A DNA stretch of 64,000 nt from an uncultured Candidatus Rokubacteria bacterium (GTDB lineage Bacteria; Methylomirabilota; Methylomirabilia; Rokubacteriales; CSP1-6). The translations under genes were made by a program, and so were the position numbers. This document shows positions 6,726 to 57,330 of the stretch, one piece after another. The stretch is taken from NCBI GenBank assembly GCA_963754315.1, contig CAVWFS010000015.1, forward strand, positions 86,207-150,206. Direction: 5' to 3'. Below the pieces are notes generated by a model that saw only the letters and a program-made list of their open reading frames with translations, was not told the origin of the DNA and ran no database searches. Every line of letters starts with the position of its first letter. Within the stretch, counting starts at the first letter, position 1.

Positions 6726-8504
6726 ATGCCGTCGACGAAATTCGCGAATCTCGTGGAGATGTTCGAGCGCTCCGCCAGCACGTTTGCGTCCCATCCGCTG
6801 TTCGGGCTCAAGCGGGGCGGCCAGTGGTCGTGGATCACGTACCAGGACGTCGCCCGGCAAGTCGACGCGTTCCGGGGCGGCCTGGCCGGGCTCGGGGTAA
6901 AGCGTGGCGACCGCGTCGCCATCGTCTCCAACAATCGGCCGGAATGGGCGATCAGCGCCTATGCGTGCTTCGGCCTCGGGGCCTCGCTGGTGCCCATGTA
7001 TGAGGCGCAGCTACCCACGGAGTGGGGCTACATCTGCGCGGACTGTAGCCCGGTGGCCATCATCGCCGCCACCGGTGAGATCTTCGACAAGTGCCTGGCG
7101 TTGCCCAAGAGCGTGTCCGCCATGAAGCACGTCCTCGGACTCGCGCTGCCCTCGGATCATCCGAGCTCGTTCGAGGGCGTGCTGGCCGCCGGCACACGGA
7201 ACCCCACGCCGGCCATACGTCCCGAGCCCACGGACACCGCGTGCCTCATATACACGTCGGGCACCACCGGCTACCCCAAGGGTGTCATCCTTTCGCACAG
7301 CAACATCGCGTCGAACATCAGCGCCGTGCACGAGATGATGCCCATGGGCGGCCAGGACAGAAGCCTCTCCTTCCTTCCCTGGGCCCACTCCTTCGGACAG
7401 ACGTGCGAGCTGCACGCGCTCCTCTCGCTGGGTGCATCCATGGCGCTGTGCGAGGACGTGACCAAGCTGGTCGAGCAGCTGCCCGAGGTGAGGCCGACCC
7501 TGCTCGTGAGCGTCCCGCGCGTCTTCAACCGCATCTACGACGGCGTGCACCAGCAGATGGCCAGCAAACCCAAGGCCATCCAGAAGCTCTTCCACAATGG
7601 CCTGCGCGCGGCCAGCAAGCGACGCCAGGGCGCTGTCCTCGGCACCGGGGAGAGGCTCGTCCTCGCGCTGGCTGACCGCCTCGTGTTCTCGAAGATCCGG
7701 GCTCGGTTCGGGGGACGTATGAAGTACGCCTTCAGCGGAGGGGCCGCCCTCGCGCGCGAAGTGGCGGAGTTCATCGACAGCCTCGGGATCACCGTATACG
7801 AAGGGTACGGTCTCACCGAGACCAGTCCCATCGCCACCGGTAACCGGCCCGGTGTTCATCGCATCGGCAGCGTGGGCAAGCCGATCCCGGGAGTGCGGAT
7901 CGAGCTCGATCAGAGCGCCTCGACCGAGGGTGGTGAGGGCGAGATCGTCGTGTACGGCCCCAACGTGATGCAGGGTTATCACAATCAGGAAGCGGAGAAC
8001 CGCGCCGTCTTCACGTCCGACCGAGGCTTCCGCACCGGGGACCTCGGGCGCTTCGACGGGGACGGCTTCCTCTACATCACCGGGCGCATCAAGGAGCAGT
8101 ACAAGCTCCAGAACGGCAAGTACGTGGCGCCGGCCCCCCTCGAGGAGCAGCTCAAGCTATCGCCCTACATTCTGAACGCCCTCCTGTTCGGCGATAACCG
8201 GCCACACAACGTCGCGCTCATCGTGCCGGACATGGCTTCCCTCAAGCAGTGGAGCACCCGGCACGGGATCGTGACAACCAGTGACGAGGAGCTGCTCGCT
8301 CATCCGCGAGCGCTCGCCCTGATCCAGGAGGAAGTCGACCGGTACGCGGCTGGCTGGAGAGGGTTCGAACGGGTCCACAAGGTGACCCTCATCGCCGAGG
8401 ATTTCACCACGCAGAACGGTTACCTCACCCCCACCCTCAAGTTGAAGCGGCGGGTGGCGCTGCAGACTTACGGGCCCCGCATCGAAGCCCTGTACCGGGA
8501 GTAG
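6726..8504 (+). CDS. long-chain fatty-acid--CoA ligase (AMP-forming, FadD15-like)
   Basis: 592 aa with AMP-binding motif LIYTSGTTGYPKGVILSH, and YGLTETSP, GDLGRFDGDGFLYITGRIKE. RBS caaggagg lies upstream of the ATG at 6726. Confidence 0.85.
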   Translation: MPSTKFANLVEMFERSASTFASHPLFGLKRGGQWSWITYQDVARQVDAFRGGLAGLGVKRGDRVAIVSNNRPEWAISAYACFGLGASLVPMYEAQLPTEWGYICADCSPVAIIAATGEIFDKCLALPKSVSAMKHVLGLALPSDHPSSFEGVLAAGTRNPTPAIRPEPTDTACLIYTSGTTGYPKGVILSHSNIASNISAVHEMMPMGGQDRSLSFLPWAHSFGQTCELHALLSLGASMALCEDVTKLVEQLPEVRPTLLVSVPRVFNRIYDGVHQQMASKPKAIQKLFHNGLRAASKRRQGAVLGTGERLVLALADRLVFSKIRARFGGRMKYAFSGGAALAREVAEFIDSLGITVYEGYGLTETSPIATGNRPGVHRIGSVGKPIPGVRIELDQSASTEGGEGEIVVYGPNVMQGYHNQEAENRAVFTSDRGFRTGDLGRFDGDGFLYITGRIKEQYKLQNGKYVAPAPLEEQLKLSPYILNALLFGDNRPHNVALIVPDMASLKQWSTRHGIVTTSDEELLAHPRALALIQEEVDRYAAGWRGFERVHKVTLIAEDFTTQNGYLTPTLKLKRRVALQTYGPRIEALYRE

Positions 8505-29054: not shown

Positions 29055-29323
29055 GGGGGGCCTCGAAGGGCCCCCTGGCCCCCCGCGCTCGGGACGTCCC
29101 GGGGAACCCGTGACGCCCCTCGGGATTACGCGGCGATGCTGGGGCCTCGAAGGGCCCCCTGGCCCCCCAGCGCTCGGGGACGTCCCGGGGAACCCGTGAC
29201 GCCCCTCGGGATTACGCGGCGATGCTGGGGCCTCGAAGGGCCCCCTGGCCCCGCGCTCGGGACGTCCCGGGGAACCCGTGACGCCCCTCGGGATTACGTC
29301 GCGGTGTGGGGCCTCGAAGGGCC
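29055..29323. repeat. GC-rich tandem repeat, about 84-bp unit x about 3.3 copies, each unit containing short palindromes
   Basis: Units start at about 29057, 29141, 29227 and 29307 (the last is partial). The unit is GGGGCCTCGAAGGGCCCCCTGGCCCCCCGCGCTCGGGACGTCCCGGGGAACCCGTGACGCCCCTCGGGATTACGCGGCGATGCT. It contains the hairpin GGGGCC-TCGAA-GGGCCCC and the perfect palindrome GGGACGTCCC. It lies between convergent fadD-like and yfbR genes. Confidence 0.8.
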
Positions 29324-29334
29324 CAGTTCTACGA

Positions 29335-32789: not shown

Positions 32790-35313
32790 CTACTCCTGCC
32801 TGAGCACGGGCAACGGCTTCTCGCCGAGCAGCCGGAAGGTCGCCAGGAATCCCACCAGGAGCGCAACGGCCGCAGTGAGGGTGACGCCGACGACAAGCGC
32901 CTCCGGCTCGAACGTCCACGGGACCTCGAGAAGGTAGCGCAAGACCACCCACGAGAGCGCCATGGCCAGGGCGCTTCCGCCCAGGCCCGCCGCCACCCCC
33001 ACACAGGCGTACTCGACCGCGAAGATGCGCGCCACCACGCCCCGGGTGGCCCCGAGCGTTCGCCAGATCACCGACTCGCGCAAGCGCGTGTAACGACTCG
33101 CCGTGAGGGCCGAAATCATGACCACCAGACCGGCGCCGATGCTGAAGAGCGCCATCATCCGAATGGCCACGGCCATCTGATCGAGCACGGTCGCCACTCG
33201 CTCGAGCACGTCGCGCACGGGTATGGCCGTCACGTTGGGAAACGCGGTCACGACGGCGCCCTGGACGCGAGTCTCGTTGGCCGCAGGGACTCGGCTCGTC
33301 GCGACGAACGTGCCCGGCGCACCATCGAGGGCGCCCGGCGAGAGAATCATGAAAAAGTTGGTGGACAGCGTCTGCCAGTCGACCTTCCGAGTGCTCGTCA
33401 CCTCCGCCTCGACCGGCACGCCTTGCACCTCGAAGGTGAGGCGGTCGCCCACACCGATTCCGAGCTGCCTGGCCACGGCCTCCTCGACCGAGACGAGGGG
33501 CCGCGTCCAGTCGGTCGGGGCGCCACCAGTGCCCGCGGACGAGCACGTTGGCAGGAGGAAGATCGGCGGCGTAGGTCAGGACATACTCGCGGCGGAGATA
33601 CCAGGAGCCCTCGCTGTTCGGGCCGCCGCGCCGAGCATCGATCATGGCGCGGGTTACGGGCTGACCGTTGATGGCCGCCAGGCGCGAGCGCACCACGGGC
33701 GTGAGCACGGGGAGGGCGCCTCCTGCGGCCTCGGCTGCCACCCGCACGAACTCCTCGCGTTGATCGGGCTGTATATCGATGAAGAAGAACGACGGAGCCT
33801 CCCGCCGCTGCTCGTGATCGATCTGGCGGCCAAGGCTTGCCTCGAGCAACGCTACCGACACCAGCAGCATCACTCCGACTCCGAGCGCGATGACGATGCC
33901 CTCCGTCTGTGACCCGGGACGCGCGAGGTTGGCCACACCCTGCCGCCAGGCCAGCCCGCTCAAGCGCGGCCGCTGGCGCGCCGCCAGCGCCACCAAACGG
34001 GCCAGGCTCACCAGGAGCAGGAGTGCCGCTACCGAAGCGCCCACGAAGATCCCACCGAGCTTCCATGATCCGGCCTGCCAGAAGGCCAGCGCGACCAGGC
34101 CAAGCGCGATGGGCACGGCCGCGGCCGATGGTCTCCGCTTGGAGGCAGGATCGACCTCGTGACGCAGGAGAAGGGAGGGTCGTACCGTCCGGATGGCGAG
34201 CAAGGGCCAGAGGGCGCAAAGAAGTGCTGTCAAGACTCCCATCGCGAACGCTCGCCCGATGGTCAGCAGGTCCGGCCGCGACGATACCTCGATGGGCAGG
34301 ATGCCGGTCAGGACACCCACGACGATCGATTGCAAGGCCACGCCGAGAACGACTCCCGCCACGCTGGCGGCGACCGCCACGATCTGAGTCTGCAGGAGGT
34401 AGCCCGTCAGGAGCACTCGCGAGCTGGCCCCGAGAACTTTCAATATGGCGATCGTCGGACGCTGACGCCTCATGAACGTTGCCACGGCCGAGGCCACGCC
34501 GATGCCGCCGACCAGGAGGCTGACGAGCCCGATCAGACCAAGGTACGTCGCCATCTGGGAGAAGAAACGCCGCAGCCCAGGCTGCGCCTCGTTGAAGGAC
34601 GTCACCCTGATGGTCGGGTCCGAGATTTCGCGCGCGATGGCCTCCCGGCTCTCGCGCGCCGCCATTCTATCGGGCAAGCGAAGCAGGGTTCGGTAGCGTA
34701 CACGGCTCCCGAACTGGAGGAGCCCTGTGCCTTCGAGTGTCTGGCCGCTGATCAGCACGCGCGGTCCCAGCCCGAAGCCCACCGGGCTGTCCGGCTCCTT
34801 ACGCACAACGCCTCGGATGGTCACCGTCCCGTTGCCGACCAGGATACGGTCACCGACTCTCATGTCGAGCCGCGCCAGCAACGTCTCGTGCACGAGAGCA
34901 CCACCGTCGGCGAGCAGCTCTGCCAGTGGACGTTCGGGCTCGGTCTGCATGCGGCCGTACAGGGGATAGTCTGGCTCCACCGCTTTCAGCTCGACCAGCA
35001 GGGAACCCCCAGCACGAGGATCGCGGACCATCCCGACGAGCTCCCGCACACGGGTCACGGCAGCTCCGGCCGAGGCAACCCGCTCCACGGCCTGTGTTGC
35101 CTCGTCCCCAAGGGGACGCATGGCCCGAAGCTCGAGGTCCCCACCCATGAGCGTCCTGGCCTCACGGGTCAGAGCGCGGTCAACGTTGGCGGCAAGCGTG
35201 CCGACCGAGGCCAGCGCCGCCACCCCGACGGCGACGCAGGCGAAAAAGCCAACGAAGTGGCGCCACCCGCCCCGCATCTCGCGCAGGGCTATTAAGATGG
35301 GGGGCCCCGACAT
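32790..35313 (-). CDS. ABC transporter permease with two FtsX domains (YbbP-like), split by a frameshift near 33525
   Basis: The N-terminal part is in ORF 32668..35448 up to ...VLVRGHWWRP. The C-terminal part is in 32790..33476 (...QLGIGVGDRLTFEVQGVPVEAEV... second FtsX domain). The junction lies in gcgccccgacc. Removing one C gives the continuous HWWRPTDWTRPLVSVEEAVARQLGIG. The N-terminus is tentatively MSGPPILIALREMRGG at 35313, inside the repeat. Confidence 0.75.
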
Positions 35314-35478
35314 GGCCCCCCATACCCCCCAACGCTCGGGGCGCCCCGGGACACCCGGGTCACCCCTCGACATGACGCCAGCTTCTGGGGCCCCGATATG
35401 GCCCCCATACCCCCCAGCGCTCGGGGCGCCCCGGGATACCCGGGTCACCCCTCGACATGACGCCAGCCTCTTAACGTG
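35297..35478. repeat. about 2 copies of the same GC-rich about 84-bp repeat family, between the ABC ATPase and its permease
   Basis: Unit is GGGGCCCCGACATGGCCCCCATACCCCCCAACGCTCGGGGCGCCCCGGGACACCCGGGTCACCCCTCGACATGACGCCAGC. It aligns block for block with the 29055 unit (...CGCTCGGG.CG.CCCGGG.A.CCCG.G.C.CCCCTCG...). The second copy starts at about 35388. Confidence 0.7.
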
Positions 35479-35490
35479 GGGGGCCCCATC

Positions 35491-36186
35491 TCAGAGCCCA
35501 GCCTGATCGGCGGGCGGATGGCCGTTGCCGTTGACGAGGCGACCGTCCAGGAGGCTCACGATCCGATCAGCGTGGGCGGCCAGAGCCGGATCATGGGTGA
35601 CGAGCAGGAGCGTGCTTCCCCGTTCCCGTCTGAGCCGCAGCATCAGATCGATGATGGCGGCCCCGGTGGCGGAATCGAGGTTTCCGGTGGGCTCGTCGGC
35701 GAGGAGCAACTTCGGTCGAAGCGCCACCGCGCGCGCGAGCGCCACGCGCTGTTGCTCTCCCCCGGAGAGCTGCGCCGGATAGTGATGGGCGCGCCGGGTC
35801 AGGCCGACCTCGCTCAGGAGCCCTGCCGCACGGGTCAGGGCGTCGGCGTGGCCGGCGAGCTCGAGCGGAACCGCCACGTTTTCGCGCGCGCTGAGGGTCG
35901 GTATCAAGTTGAACGACTGGAAAACGTAGCCGATTCGTTGGCACCGGAAGCCCGCGAGCATATTCTCCGAGAGTCCGGTGATCTCGATGCCATCGACCTC
36001 GATACTCCCCGTGGTCGGCTGATCCAGCCCCGCGATCAGTCCGAGCAAGGTCGACTTGCCACTCCCGGAGGGGCCGGTGATGGCCACGAACTCGCCGGCC
36101 GCCACCTCGAGGTGAATTGCGTCGAGGATCGGGACGGGACGACCACCGCTGGCGAGACGCATAGAAAGGTCCCGTACCCGGATCAT
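35491..36186 (-). CDS. ABC transporter ATP-binding protein (YbbA/LolD/MacB-type)
   Basis: MIRVRDLSMRLASGGRPVPILDAIHLEVAAGEFVAITGPSGSGKSTLL (Walker A), [27 protein letters not shown]. Confidence 0.85.
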   Translation of the reverse strand: MIRVRDLSMRLASGGRPVPILDAIHLEVAAGEFVAITGPSGSGKSTLLGLIAGLDQPTTGSIEVDGIEITGLSENMLAGFRCQRIGYVFQSFNLIPTLSARENVAVPLELAGHADALTRAAGLLSEVGLTRRAHHYPAQLSGGEQQRVALARAVALRPKLLLADEPTGNLDSATGAAIIDLMLRLRRERGSTLLLVTHDPALAAHADRIVSLLDGRLVNGNGHPPADQAGL

Positions 36187-36212
36187 CTTGAATCCCATAC
36201 TACACTCGGGTC

Positions 36213-36833
36213 ATGAGACACGCCGCCCTCGCGGTAGTGCTCGTCGCCCTGGCGCTGACCGGCGTGGTCGAAGACATCTCGGCGGAAGAGACGCTCGCCG
36301 TGCTGGGTGACAGTCTCACCGCCGGCTTCGGCATCGGCCTTGAGGAGGCATTCCCGGCCCTCCTCCAGGAGCGGCTCCGGCGAGAGGGTTACGACTATCG
36401 AGTCGTCAACGCGGGCGTGAGCGGCGACACCACGGCCGGAGGCCTCAGGCGGGTGGACTGGGTGCTCCGCACACGACCGTCCATCGTCATCGTGGCCCTC
36501 GGCGGCAACGACGGCCTGCGCGGCCTCAGCGTGGATGCGATGCGCGAGAACCTGGAGGAAATCATCGCGCGTATCCGGGCCAGCGGCGCCCGGGTTCTGC
36601 TGGCCGGCATGCGGGTGCCTCCCAACTATGGTGGGGAATACGCGCGCGCGTTTGCTGCGGCCTTCCCGGCGGTGGCGCGCAAGGCTGGTGTCTCCCTGAT
36701 GCCATTCCTGCTCGACGGAGTGGCCGGCGACCCGGGTCTGAACCAGCCCGATGGCATCCATCCCAATGCGCGCGGTCAGCAGGTCGTCGCTGCGCGGCTC
36801 TGGCCCTATCTGACCCCGCTGCTACCGAAGTAA
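36213..36833 (+). CDS. SGNH/GDSL hydrolase, arylesterase / acyl-CoA thioesterase I (TesA-like)
   Basis: Signal peptide, then LAVLGDSLTAGFG (GDSL block I), ALGGNDG (block III), DGIHPN (block V). It is divergent from the ybbA/ybbP-like genes, as tesA is in E. coli. Confidence 0.8.
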   Translation: MRHAALAVVLVALALTGVVEDISAEETLAVLGDSLTAGFGIGLEEAFPALLQERLRREGYDYRVVNAGVSGDTTAGGLRRVDWVLRTRPSIVIVALGGNDGLRGLSVDAMRENLEEIIARIRASGARVLLAGMRVPPNYGGEYARAFAAAFPAVARKAGVSLMPFLLDGVAGDPGLNQPDGIHPNARGQQVVAARLWPYLTPLLPK

Positions 36834-56957: not shown

Positions 56958-57330
56958 TACAAGGGGGCCCTTTCGGGCCCCGCCCTCACGCATTCCCGAG
57001 GCGCGCCACGCTCCCCCGGGGCGTGCCGAGCCGCCTTGGGGGGCCAGGGGCCCTTTCGAGGCCCCGCCCTCGCGCATTCCCGAGGCGCGCCACGGGTCCC
57101 CCGGGGCGTGCCGAGCCACCCTGGGGGGCCAGGGGGCCCTTTCGGGGCCCCGCCCTCGCGCATTCCCGAGGCGCGCCACGCGTCCCCCGGGGCGTGCCGA
57201 GCCGCCTGGGGGGCCAGGGGGGCCCTGTTCGGGGCCCCGCCCGCCGCGCATTCCCGAGGCGCGCCACGGGTCCCCCGGGGCGTGCCGAGCCGCCTTGGGG
57301 GGCCAGGGGGGCCCTTTCGAGGCCCCCCTC
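56958..57330. repeat. GC-rich tandem repeat, about 85-bp unit x about 4.5 copies, same family as 29055 and 35297 but in inverted orientation
   Basis: The unit GCGCATTCCCGAGGCGCGCCACGGGTCCCCCGGGGCGTGCCGAGCCGCCTTGGGGGGCCAGGGGGCCCTTTCGAGGCCCCGCCCTC is close to the reverse complement of the 29055 unit. Copies are nearly identical and directly abutting, with no spacers. It ends at the acuC-like stop and lies about 40 nt upstream of the tmk start. All track ORFs inside (56577..57566) are repeat artefacts. Confidence 0.8.

Follow-up and report, generated by a model that had tools for sequence, protein, structure and literature searches.

A repeat array, probably mobile and MIRU-like, at the 5′ end of a ybbP-like permease gene in an uncultured Rokubacteria bacterium

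The stretch of 64,000 nucleotides analysed here (the window) belongs to contig CAVWFS010000015.1 of an uncultured Candidatus Rokubacteria bacterium and carries a tandem repeat array between two genes of one operon, which encode a ybbA-like ABC ATPase and a ybbP-like FtsX/MacB_PCD permease. It is probable that this array is a member of a family of non-autonomous mobile repeats acting as a relay in the manner of the interspersed repetitive units of mycobacteria (MIRUs), that it goes back to one ancestral insertion, and that the element now supplies the 5′ end of the permease gene. This reading is carried by the exchange of the first eight permease codons, by junctions of relatives with and without the repeat, and by filled and empty sites of the same family at other loci. 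Positions are those of the window, the operon is read on the minus strand, and related contigs and called proteins are designated by L and P numbers.

The junction array and the 5′ end of the permease gene

An earlier examination of the letters alone (the sequence-only reading) had described two copies of one repeat inside a ybbA/ybbP-type operon. This is confirmed: a tandem repeat lies at 35301-35471 (period 85, 2.0 copies, 94% matches, score 307), and a repeat search found two 70-nt copies of 96% identity at the junction. The location proposed earlier, 35297-35478, was right, the element itself being slightly wider (35289-35487). Two tandem units of 85/86 nt, 94% identical, span 35299-35467. 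On the mRNA strand, the ATPase stop codon (TGA 35493-35491) is followed by a single G, a partial unit ATGGGGCCCCCCACGTTAAGAG, unit A, unit B and the tail ATCTTAATAG, after which the conserved permease codons GCC CTG CGC GAG begin (Table 1). The predicted fold of the 216-nt region has an energy of -132 kcal/mol (z = -3.4 versus shuffles).

A hairpin followed by a tail, as in the partial unit, is the usual 3′ end of single family members, and at this position other occupied lineages carry a full hairpin or a 5′-truncated unit. The stretches 35468-35487 and 35289-35308 pair as a 17-20-nt direct repeat bracketing the array. The possibility that GGGGCCCCCCAYSTTAAKAG is a target duplication of 17-20 nt, with the ancestral start 'TGAGATGGGGCCCCCCATGTTAATAGCC', was rejected as the principal interpretation, because arm and tail end family members at unrelated loci and other occupied lineages differ at this place. 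A CRISPR array was also rejected: the stretches between hairpins are the same within the array and conserved across arrays, and are not unique spacers, while the sole Rfam CRISPR match (E 0.89, 19 bits versus a cut-off of 50 bits) is noise.

The ATG at 35313-35311 sits in the 7-nt loop of the terminal hairpin of unit B. In orthologues with an empty site (L090, L092, L001) the permease starts with a GTG that precedes the W of the conserved WRHF motif by 16 codons, and the ancestral-type N-terminus in L090 reads V-T-S-A-P-L-R-L-A-W-R-E-M-R-G-G-W. The N-terminus in the window is M-S-G-P-P-I-L-I-A-L-R-E-M-R-G-G-W, and its ATG 35313 is likewise codon -16. Codons 1-8 (MSGPPILI) consist of the loop ATG TCG, the 3′ arm GGG CCC CCC and the tail ATC TTA ATA. 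Loop, arm and tail are family-wide element sequence, present at unrelated loci; the tail was matched against family tails such as ACGTGAACAG and ATTCTAATAG and against the empty-site orthologues, to which homology restarts at codon 9 (GCC). At the level of sequence comparison, this shows that the start codon and codons 1-8 come from the element. The sequence-only reading had offered two outcomes of the insertion, a donated start codon and 5′ region or a separation of the permease from its upstream translation signals, and both hold. The start codon is donated, because the element swapped the first eight codons for eight of its own, and the ancestral coupling signal, a 4-nt overlap, now lies 177 nt away, the distance from the ATPase stop to ATG 35313.

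The same ATG had been taken for the only plausible start. Among the canonical starts upstream of the conserved A(L/W)RE residues it is indeed the closest, but no stop interrupts the permease frame anywhere in the repeat up to the ATPase stop, and this stretch contains an in-frame GTG at 35448 and an ATG at 35373 (codon -36); for the near-identical protein P0001, a gene caller placed the start at the matching upstream codon. It is unlikely that the permease starts downstream of the repeat, because the A(L/W)RE residues, which precede the next ATG (35277), are shared even by Nitrospirota. We infer that the permease is initiated at AUG 35313 or at one of the upstream in-frame codons, GTG 35448 or ATG 35373. 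A 14-codon open reading frame (ORF) read from the sequence begins with an ATG 1 nt past the ATPase stop, and its TGA overlaps, as GTGA, the GTG 35448-35446 that opens the permease frame. This ORF is a possible coupling relay.

Junctions in relatives and the dispersed family

The comparison with relatives proposed by the sequence-only reading could be made. The junctions of L001, L090 and L092, whose permeases are 74-80% identical, contain no repeat, and their genes overlap as GTGA; in more distant orthologues, also without the repeat, the genes overlap as GTGA or sit a few nucleotides apart. Occupied junctions were found in L081-L086, L088, L089 and L091. The window and L081 (99.5% identical DNA) have two units each, L085 has two, L083 and L089 have one, in L086/L087 a single unit is enclosed by two hairpins, L088 carries about 2.5 units, each 87 nt long, and L091 about 1.2; L082 and L084, both short-read contigs that end inside the repeat, have at least two. 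Unit number likewise varies at the orthologous site of the window's array at 29057-29324, with 3.2 units in the window, two in L085 and one each in L086 and L089. Short-read assemblies may collapse such arrays, and the unit lengths of 85, 86 and 87 nt may carry homopolymer errors.

In a neighbour-joining tree of the permeases with trimmed N-termini, the occupied loci were monophyletic in 177 of 200 bootstraps (88%) and sister to the empty L090 and L092. This shows that the insertion at the ybbA/ybbP-like junction is derived and that its copy number varies; going by the sequences, the simplest history would be a single insertion in the ancestor, after which units were gained and lost. The permease ORF is intact in five occupied lineages (828-913 residues as called), so the insertion is compatible with long-term maintenance of the gene, and the occupied operon has been kept intact over about 80-87% protein divergence.

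At L088:119-350, where the permease is 83% identical, the 87-nt units make 29 codons in frame and a GTG overlaps the ATPase stop. The permease was called there with a repeat-encoded N-terminal extension of 72 residues containing three in-frame loop ATGs.

Two more arrays of the window, at 29057-29324 and 56962-57326, belong to the same family, in agreement with the earlier description of the junction copies as part of one repeat; nhmmer E-values of the repeat arrays are 1e-13 to 1e-22. Both begin 1-13 nt from stop codons. The third array starts 1 nt past the upstream stop TAG 57332-57330, and its flanking direct repeat TTGTAG includes that stop; the gene downstream of it (start GTG 56917) retains its own GGGAGG Shine-Dalgarno sequence.

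A pattern search with the conserved core found the family in at least 120 soil-metagenome contigs with a median G+C content of 70%; the family-wide counts given here and below are those among the matches listed. A profile derived from the units matched at least 208 units in at least 135 loci, 120 of which are soil-metagenome contigs and essentially all Methylomirabilota/Rokubacteria-like, and the proteins of one carrier contig have homologues named after Rokubacteria and Methylomirabilota. Among 80 ybbP orthologue loci of GTDB genomes the family is present in two Methylomirabilota only, and the profile search gave matches in 0 of about 70 Nitrospirota ybbP loci. At metagenome loci the repeat forms 110 single copies, while 24 arrays have two units, two have three and two have four. 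A single copy measures about 90 nt and the units of the three window arrays 85/86 nt, within the range of 40-100 bp known for MIRU units. In the orientation of the ybbA/ybbP mRNA, 82 non-redundant copies give the consensus nnATCGAGGAGCGCCACGGGTTCCCCGGGGCGCTCCGAGCGTnGGGGGGTnTGGGGGGCCATnTCGGGGCCCCCCA, to which a tail of about 10 nt is added, and the loop is CCATNTCGG family-wide, with N being G in 19, T in 16, A in 10 and C in nine copies. The two hairpins of each unit are backed by covariation: 94.8% of the cells are paired, at most 69% in slid controls, and double-change cells number 50 as compared with 8.7 in shuffles, a value exceeded in 0 of 500 shuffles. Pair 20-45, for instance, occurs as AU 49, GC 16 and CG 8 times, and pair 24-40 as CG 59 and UA 12 times. 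A literature search found no relevant description of a Rokubacteria or Methylomirabilota repeat family, and the family is apparently new and undescribed. The kind of element, a MIRU-like intercistronic mobile repeat, is already known.

The mobility of the family and its coupling architecture are shown at other loci. Many sense-oriented single copies are flanked on both sides by ...GATGAG.... At the OEP/CzcB junction in L111 (13986-14090) the filled site reads GAGACCCG-ATGAGC-(element)-CG-ATGAGCCGCGGC. In the empty orthologues L213-L216 (93% protein identity), L219 (87%) and L217 (82%), OEP and CzcB overlap by 4 nt and GAGACCCG directly adjoins GTGAGCCGG. The insertion in L111 amounts to 98 nt, of which 90 nt are the element and 8 nt a duplication, CG(A/G)TGAGC, that contains the overlapping stop and start, and it creates a 33-codon mini-ORF coupled (-4) at both ends. 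Target duplications of 7-13 nt, always with the start codon, were seen in about 12 independent copies, and flanking repeats of at least 7 nt occur in 28% of copies versus 16% in mismatched controls. A target duplication as a general property of the family was rejected, since only the 'AC-tail' subfamily shows one.

An ORF that runs through the element and whose stop shares 4 nt with the downstream start is present in 20 of 42 sense copies, versus five of 26 copies in the other orientation. Complete two-sided relays are formed by 13 non-redundant copies with mini-ORFs of 32-36 codons: the mini-ORF start overlaps the upstream stop (NTGA) and its TGA overlaps the real start of the downstream gene. 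The flanking genes are genuine operon partners (an AMP-binding enzyme and a LivH-type permease, OEP and HlyD/CzcB, LivM and LivG) whose N-termini match the starts of Pfam profiles. The non-redundant contexts comprise 24 sense co-directional, 15 antisense co-directional, 16 convergent and six divergent copies; a strict rule of orientation relative to transcription was tried and rejected, and the sense position between co-directional genes amounts to a preference of the family. At the ybbA/ybbP locus the repeat lies in the sense orientation between co-directional operon genes.

Proposed history and rival explanations

The typical habitat of the element would be a gene boundary, particularly the 4-nt stop/start overlap (ATGA or GTGA) of a translationally coupled pair. 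Insertion with a short target duplication containing the start codon would produce a mini-cistron of about 33 codons, and ribosomes would be relayed across it, because it overlaps the upstream stop with its start and the real downstream start with its stop. A single insertion of this kind may have occurred at the ybbA/ybbP-like junction in the ancestor of the sub-clade, where the ancestral GTGA corresponds to the preferred target of the family. Unequal recombination or slippage could then have shifted the unit number to one, two or about 2.5. The downstream half of the relay was presumably lost after the insertion, and an in-frame fusion joined the element ORF to the permease; L088, with a GTG at the ATPase stop and an ORF in frame through 2.5 units into the permease, would illustrate such a fusion. 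In the window, the first eight permease codons were lost and substituted, in frame and at the same length, by the loop ATG, the 3′ arm and the AT-rich tail. Initiation of the permease would depend on ribosomes that leave the ATPase cistron, re-initiate and melt the predicted structure of -132 kcal/mol, and their route would be the 14-codon ORF that begins 1 nt past the ATPase stop and ends in GTGA.

A more far-reaching proposal, on which we are evenly divided, is that of a mobile mini-cistron family of uncultivated Methylomirabilota/Rokubacteria which colonises overlapping junctions, brings its own relay, is convergent with MIRUs, can be exapted as a start codon or N-terminus and uses a new mobility mechanism. 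The last point would rest on the duplications, which vary from 7 to 13 nt and always include a start codon, and on the fact that neither terminal inverted repeats nor a partner transposase were seen.

Several observations weigh against the history outlined above. At ybbA/ybbP no clean target duplication and no arithmetic of empty site plus element can be reconstructed; the event there was not a simple insertion, or a deletion followed it, because the eight ancestral codons are missing. The bracketing direct repeat of 17-20 nt is better read as a partial unit, and it may still be a long duplication. The loop ATG is missing in L085, which has ATA, and in L089 and L091, which have the loop of another subfamily; these three keep intact permease ORFs without it, and the loop ATG is not a designed feature of the family. 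The relay of the window (TGAgATG...GTGA) is not conserved in strains of 99.5% identity, L084 having ACG for the ATG and L081 a TAG further on, so it may be fortuitous, and a conserved ORF relay across the array was rejected. The single unit of L083 is possibly an assembly collapse. Copies of the family are found in both orientations, and also between convergent genes, so a start-codon relay is not its only mode. No transposase or autonomous partner was found among the ORFs between inverted copies, which are ordinary (amidase, MacB-type permease, dehydrogenase, GltX), and an autonomous element was rejected on this ground.

The window permease itself also counts against the proposed history, since it contains a +1 frameshift, an extra C in the run 33517-33520 (a C-run on the minus strand): the gene may be dead in this strain or affected by a homopolymer assembly error. 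A tblastn search with the L001 orthologue split the permease into two frames, and removal of one C gives a permease of 840 aa that agrees with the intact P0001 at 829/840 residues. The same extra C recurs in contig L081, which is 99.5% identical. An assembly error is likely, a real pseudogene being possible, because sister long-read contigs of the same ENA series contain several split genes.

The sequence-only reading had suggested that strong secondary structure could make the repeat an intra-operon attenuator. In a wider form, the repeat would be a cis-acting regulatory RNA (attenuator, terminator, thermometer or mRNA stabiliser) that tunes the ATPase:permease ratio and has been selected for it. 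We regard this as unlikely, in spite of the very stable predicted structure of the 216-nt region, the compensatory changes that keep the hairpins, and the start codon held in the loop of a hairpin whose stem includes a G-run. The mRNA-sense strand has 33 G.U pairs versus 13 A.C pairs, and as G.U outnumber A.C, this strand is perhaps the constrained one, a weak hint of selection at the RNA level. A promoter and terminator scan of 34900-36400 found no terminator-like or promoter site in the gap between ATPase and permease, which also has no U-tract, and intrinsic termination at the repeat was rejected. Rfam 15 gave 0 matches in the whole window at the gathering score and, at 35200-35560 with E ≤ 1, only two chance-level matches (E about 0.8-0.9). 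Moreover, the element can face either way and can lie between convergent genes, its unit number differs among near-identical strains, orthologous operons at 74-80% identity do without it, and filled/empty pairs mark it as an insertion. An attenuator in the form first suggested is thus not supported, the operon also staying intact, and a putative quantitative effect of the repeat on permease translation is plausible.

It is less likely still that the repeat codes for a Gly/Pro/Arg-rich N-terminal extension of the permease, beginning at GTG 35448, at ATG 35373 or at the GTGA of relatives. Such an extension agrees with a permease frame that is open across the repeat in the window, L085, L086, L088, L089 and L091, with the L088 units of 87 nt (29 codons) that stay in frame from the GTG at the ATPase stop, and with the extended proteins P0001, P0003 and P0006 of the gene callers. 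The unit lengths of 85 and 86 nt, however, cannot be divided by three, so each of the two units of the window is read in a frame of its own; the other arrays, like the majority of family members, are intergenic or antisense, Pfam matches nothing in the extension besides the permease domains, and an open frame of 57 codons at such a G+C content is expected by chance about half the time, according to our estimate. An assembly or sequencing artefact, that is, a duplicated or chimeric stretch in a long-read contig, is hardly credible: at least nine independent assemblies, made from different samples and on different platforms, contain the junction repeat, short-read contigs span it (L083, L086/L087, L088, L091), and the family is found in at least 120 metagenome contigs. 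What speaks for an artefact are the homopolymer-type frameshifts and split genes in the window and in related 'contig_' assemblies, and the short-read contigs L082 and L084, which break inside the repeat. The preferred explanation remains a mobile repeat array of MIRU-like type.

Setting in the window and comparison with known repeat systems

The window has a G+C content of 67.7%. The best NCBIfam model for the permease is YbbP, matched over its full length (profile positions 21-802 of 806, with the intact near-identical homologue P0001), and Pfam Lipase_GDSL is recorded for the tesA-like gene in the gene calls of related contigs. A YbbA/YbbP-type transporter is characterised by an ABC ATPase together with a permease of about 800 aa with duplicated FtsX parts, encoded divergently from tesA; the locus agrees with this, its synteny being tesA<>ybbA-ybbP. 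The genes are named 'ybbA/ybbP-like' because the YbbA, YbbP and TesA NCBIfam matches are all under the equivalog cut-offs. The order tesA/ybbA/ybbP, divergent and then in an operon, is known from E. coli, and the arrangement is kept here despite the large phylogenetic distance.

Table 1. Features of the junction array, its host operon and the other arrays of the window
Feature	Position	Strand	Remarks
Second array, 3.2 units	29057..29324	+	290-nt gap between convergent genes, stops 29044 and 29335
ybbP-like FtsX/MacB_PCD permease gene, from ATG 35313	32790..35313	-	Pfam MacB_PCD + FtsX
AT-rich tail ATCTTAATAG, 10 nt	35289..35298	-	Permease codons 6-8 (I L I); host homology resumes at GCC
Terminal hairpin GGGGGGCC-AUGUCGG-GGCCCCCC	35299..35321	-	Predicted fold: 8-bp all-G/C stem, 7-nt loop
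Unit B, promoter-distal	35299..35386	-	Body with central hairpin + terminal hairpin
Unit A, promoter-proximal	35387..35467	-	Body with 13-bp central hairpin + terminal hairpin 35387-35406
14-codon ORF	35445..35489	-	ATG 35489-35487 to TGA 35447-35445
Partial unit GGGGCCCCCCACGTTAAGAG	35468..35487	-	3′ half of terminal hairpin GGGGCCCCCC + 10-nt tail ACGTTAAGAG
ybbA-like ABC ATPase gene	35491..36198	-	Pfam ABC_tran; best NCBIfam match YbbA, 235 bits
tesA-like GDSL thioesterase gene, divergent	36213..36833	+	Best NCBIfam match acyl-CoA thioesterase I
Third array, 4.2 units	56962..57326	-	Antisense to transcription, between co-directional minus-strand genes

In L085 and L089 (ENA ERZ25039531, ERZ25039602), several conserved genes, those of GlnD, of a CDP-alcohol transferase/SLT fusion and of a YfbR-like protein, are split as compared with L086 and L090, which suggests frequent indel errors in this assembly series. 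In L081 an antisense ORF of 378 residues without a Pfam match was called at 6903-8039 (window 34159-35295, plus strand), replacing the N-terminal part of the permease. The call is probably an artefact of the frameshift and the repeat.

In practical terms, the family misleads gene callers in metagenome-assembled genomes, producing spurious or uncertain N-terminal extensions of 20-72 residues and the antisense call of 378 residues, and it breaks short-read contigs. It could serve as a source of strain markers, similar to variable-number tandem repeats, for an uncultivated soil phylum. The series of relatives documents how a start codon and the first codons can be replaced without killing the gene.

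BOX elements of Streptococcus pneumoniae and the neisserial intergenic mosaic elements (NIMEs; RS units flanked by dRS3) are modular intergenic repeats with variable internal units and conserved end modules. Like the family described here, they have a strong predicted secondary structure and are co-transcribed with their neighbours; they differ from it in sequence and module structure. We know of no report of BOX elements or NIMEs building mini-cistrons that overlap stops and starts. Repetitive extragenic palindromes (REPs) and bacterial interspersed mosaic elements (BIMEs) are similar as extragenic G+C-rich palindromes just past stop codons, clustered and with possible effects on mRNA stability, but they are single palindromes of 20-40 nt, whereas the unit of this family has 85-90 nt, two different hairpins, a G-run and a tail, and the family makes target duplications. 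Membership in REP/BIME was rejected on the unit length of 85-90 nt; a REP-associated tyrosine transposase (RAYT)-like gene was not seen, no genome-wide RAYT search having been made.

Miniature inverted-repeat transposable elements (MITEs), RUP, Correia and Rickettsia palindromic elements resemble the family as small non-autonomous insertions with target duplications, able to lengthen an ORF at its 5′ or 3′ end, to take the place of that end or to insert in frame (PMC3184786). The family here differs from MITEs in having no evident terminal inverted repeats and no identified parent insertion sequence, and in duplications that vary and always include a start codon. Assignment to MITEs was rejected: the two ends of a single copy (5′ GCGCGGGTGATCGAGG, 3′ CCCCCCACGTGAACAG) are not complementary when inverted, the duplications of 7-13 nt are not fixed, and no transposase lies between inverted copies.

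The closest likeness is to MIRUs. According to PMC12548453, which cites Supply et al. 1997, and to PMC3184786, these are mobile, insert at start codons and carry an ORF coupled at -4, with little harm to the target gene. The same papers (PMC12548453, PMC3184786) describe further features shared with the family: units of 40-100 bp in tandem arrays whose copy number varies between strains, a location between genes of polycistronic operons, which in the family here is a preference, with insertion at start codons, an element-borne ORF with 4-nt stop/start overlaps with the flanking genes, short flanking direct repeats, filled and empty sites, and G+C-rich internal inverted repeats. Start-codon insertion with a 4-nt-coupled ORF is found family-wide, whereas the window locus shows only a variant of the relay (TGAgATG, the 14-codon ORF, GTGA and the in-frame fusion). 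The family would be a second, phylogenetically independent case of the MIRU strategy, in which a selfish repeat persists in operons by preserving translational coupling; as a second independent example, it makes this strategy look general and not a mycobacterial oddity. MIRUs belong to Actinomycetota and the family described here to Methylomirabilota/Rokubacteria, and the likeness is functional, homology being neither claimed nor expected. Unlike MIRUs, the family has a fixed architecture of two hairpins, with arrays bounded by a terminal hairpin, and about 40% of the copies that can be classified are antisense or placed between convergent genes. At the ybbA/ybbP junction its outcome is not a separate mini-ORF, as in MIRUs, but an in-frame fusion that supplies the start codon.

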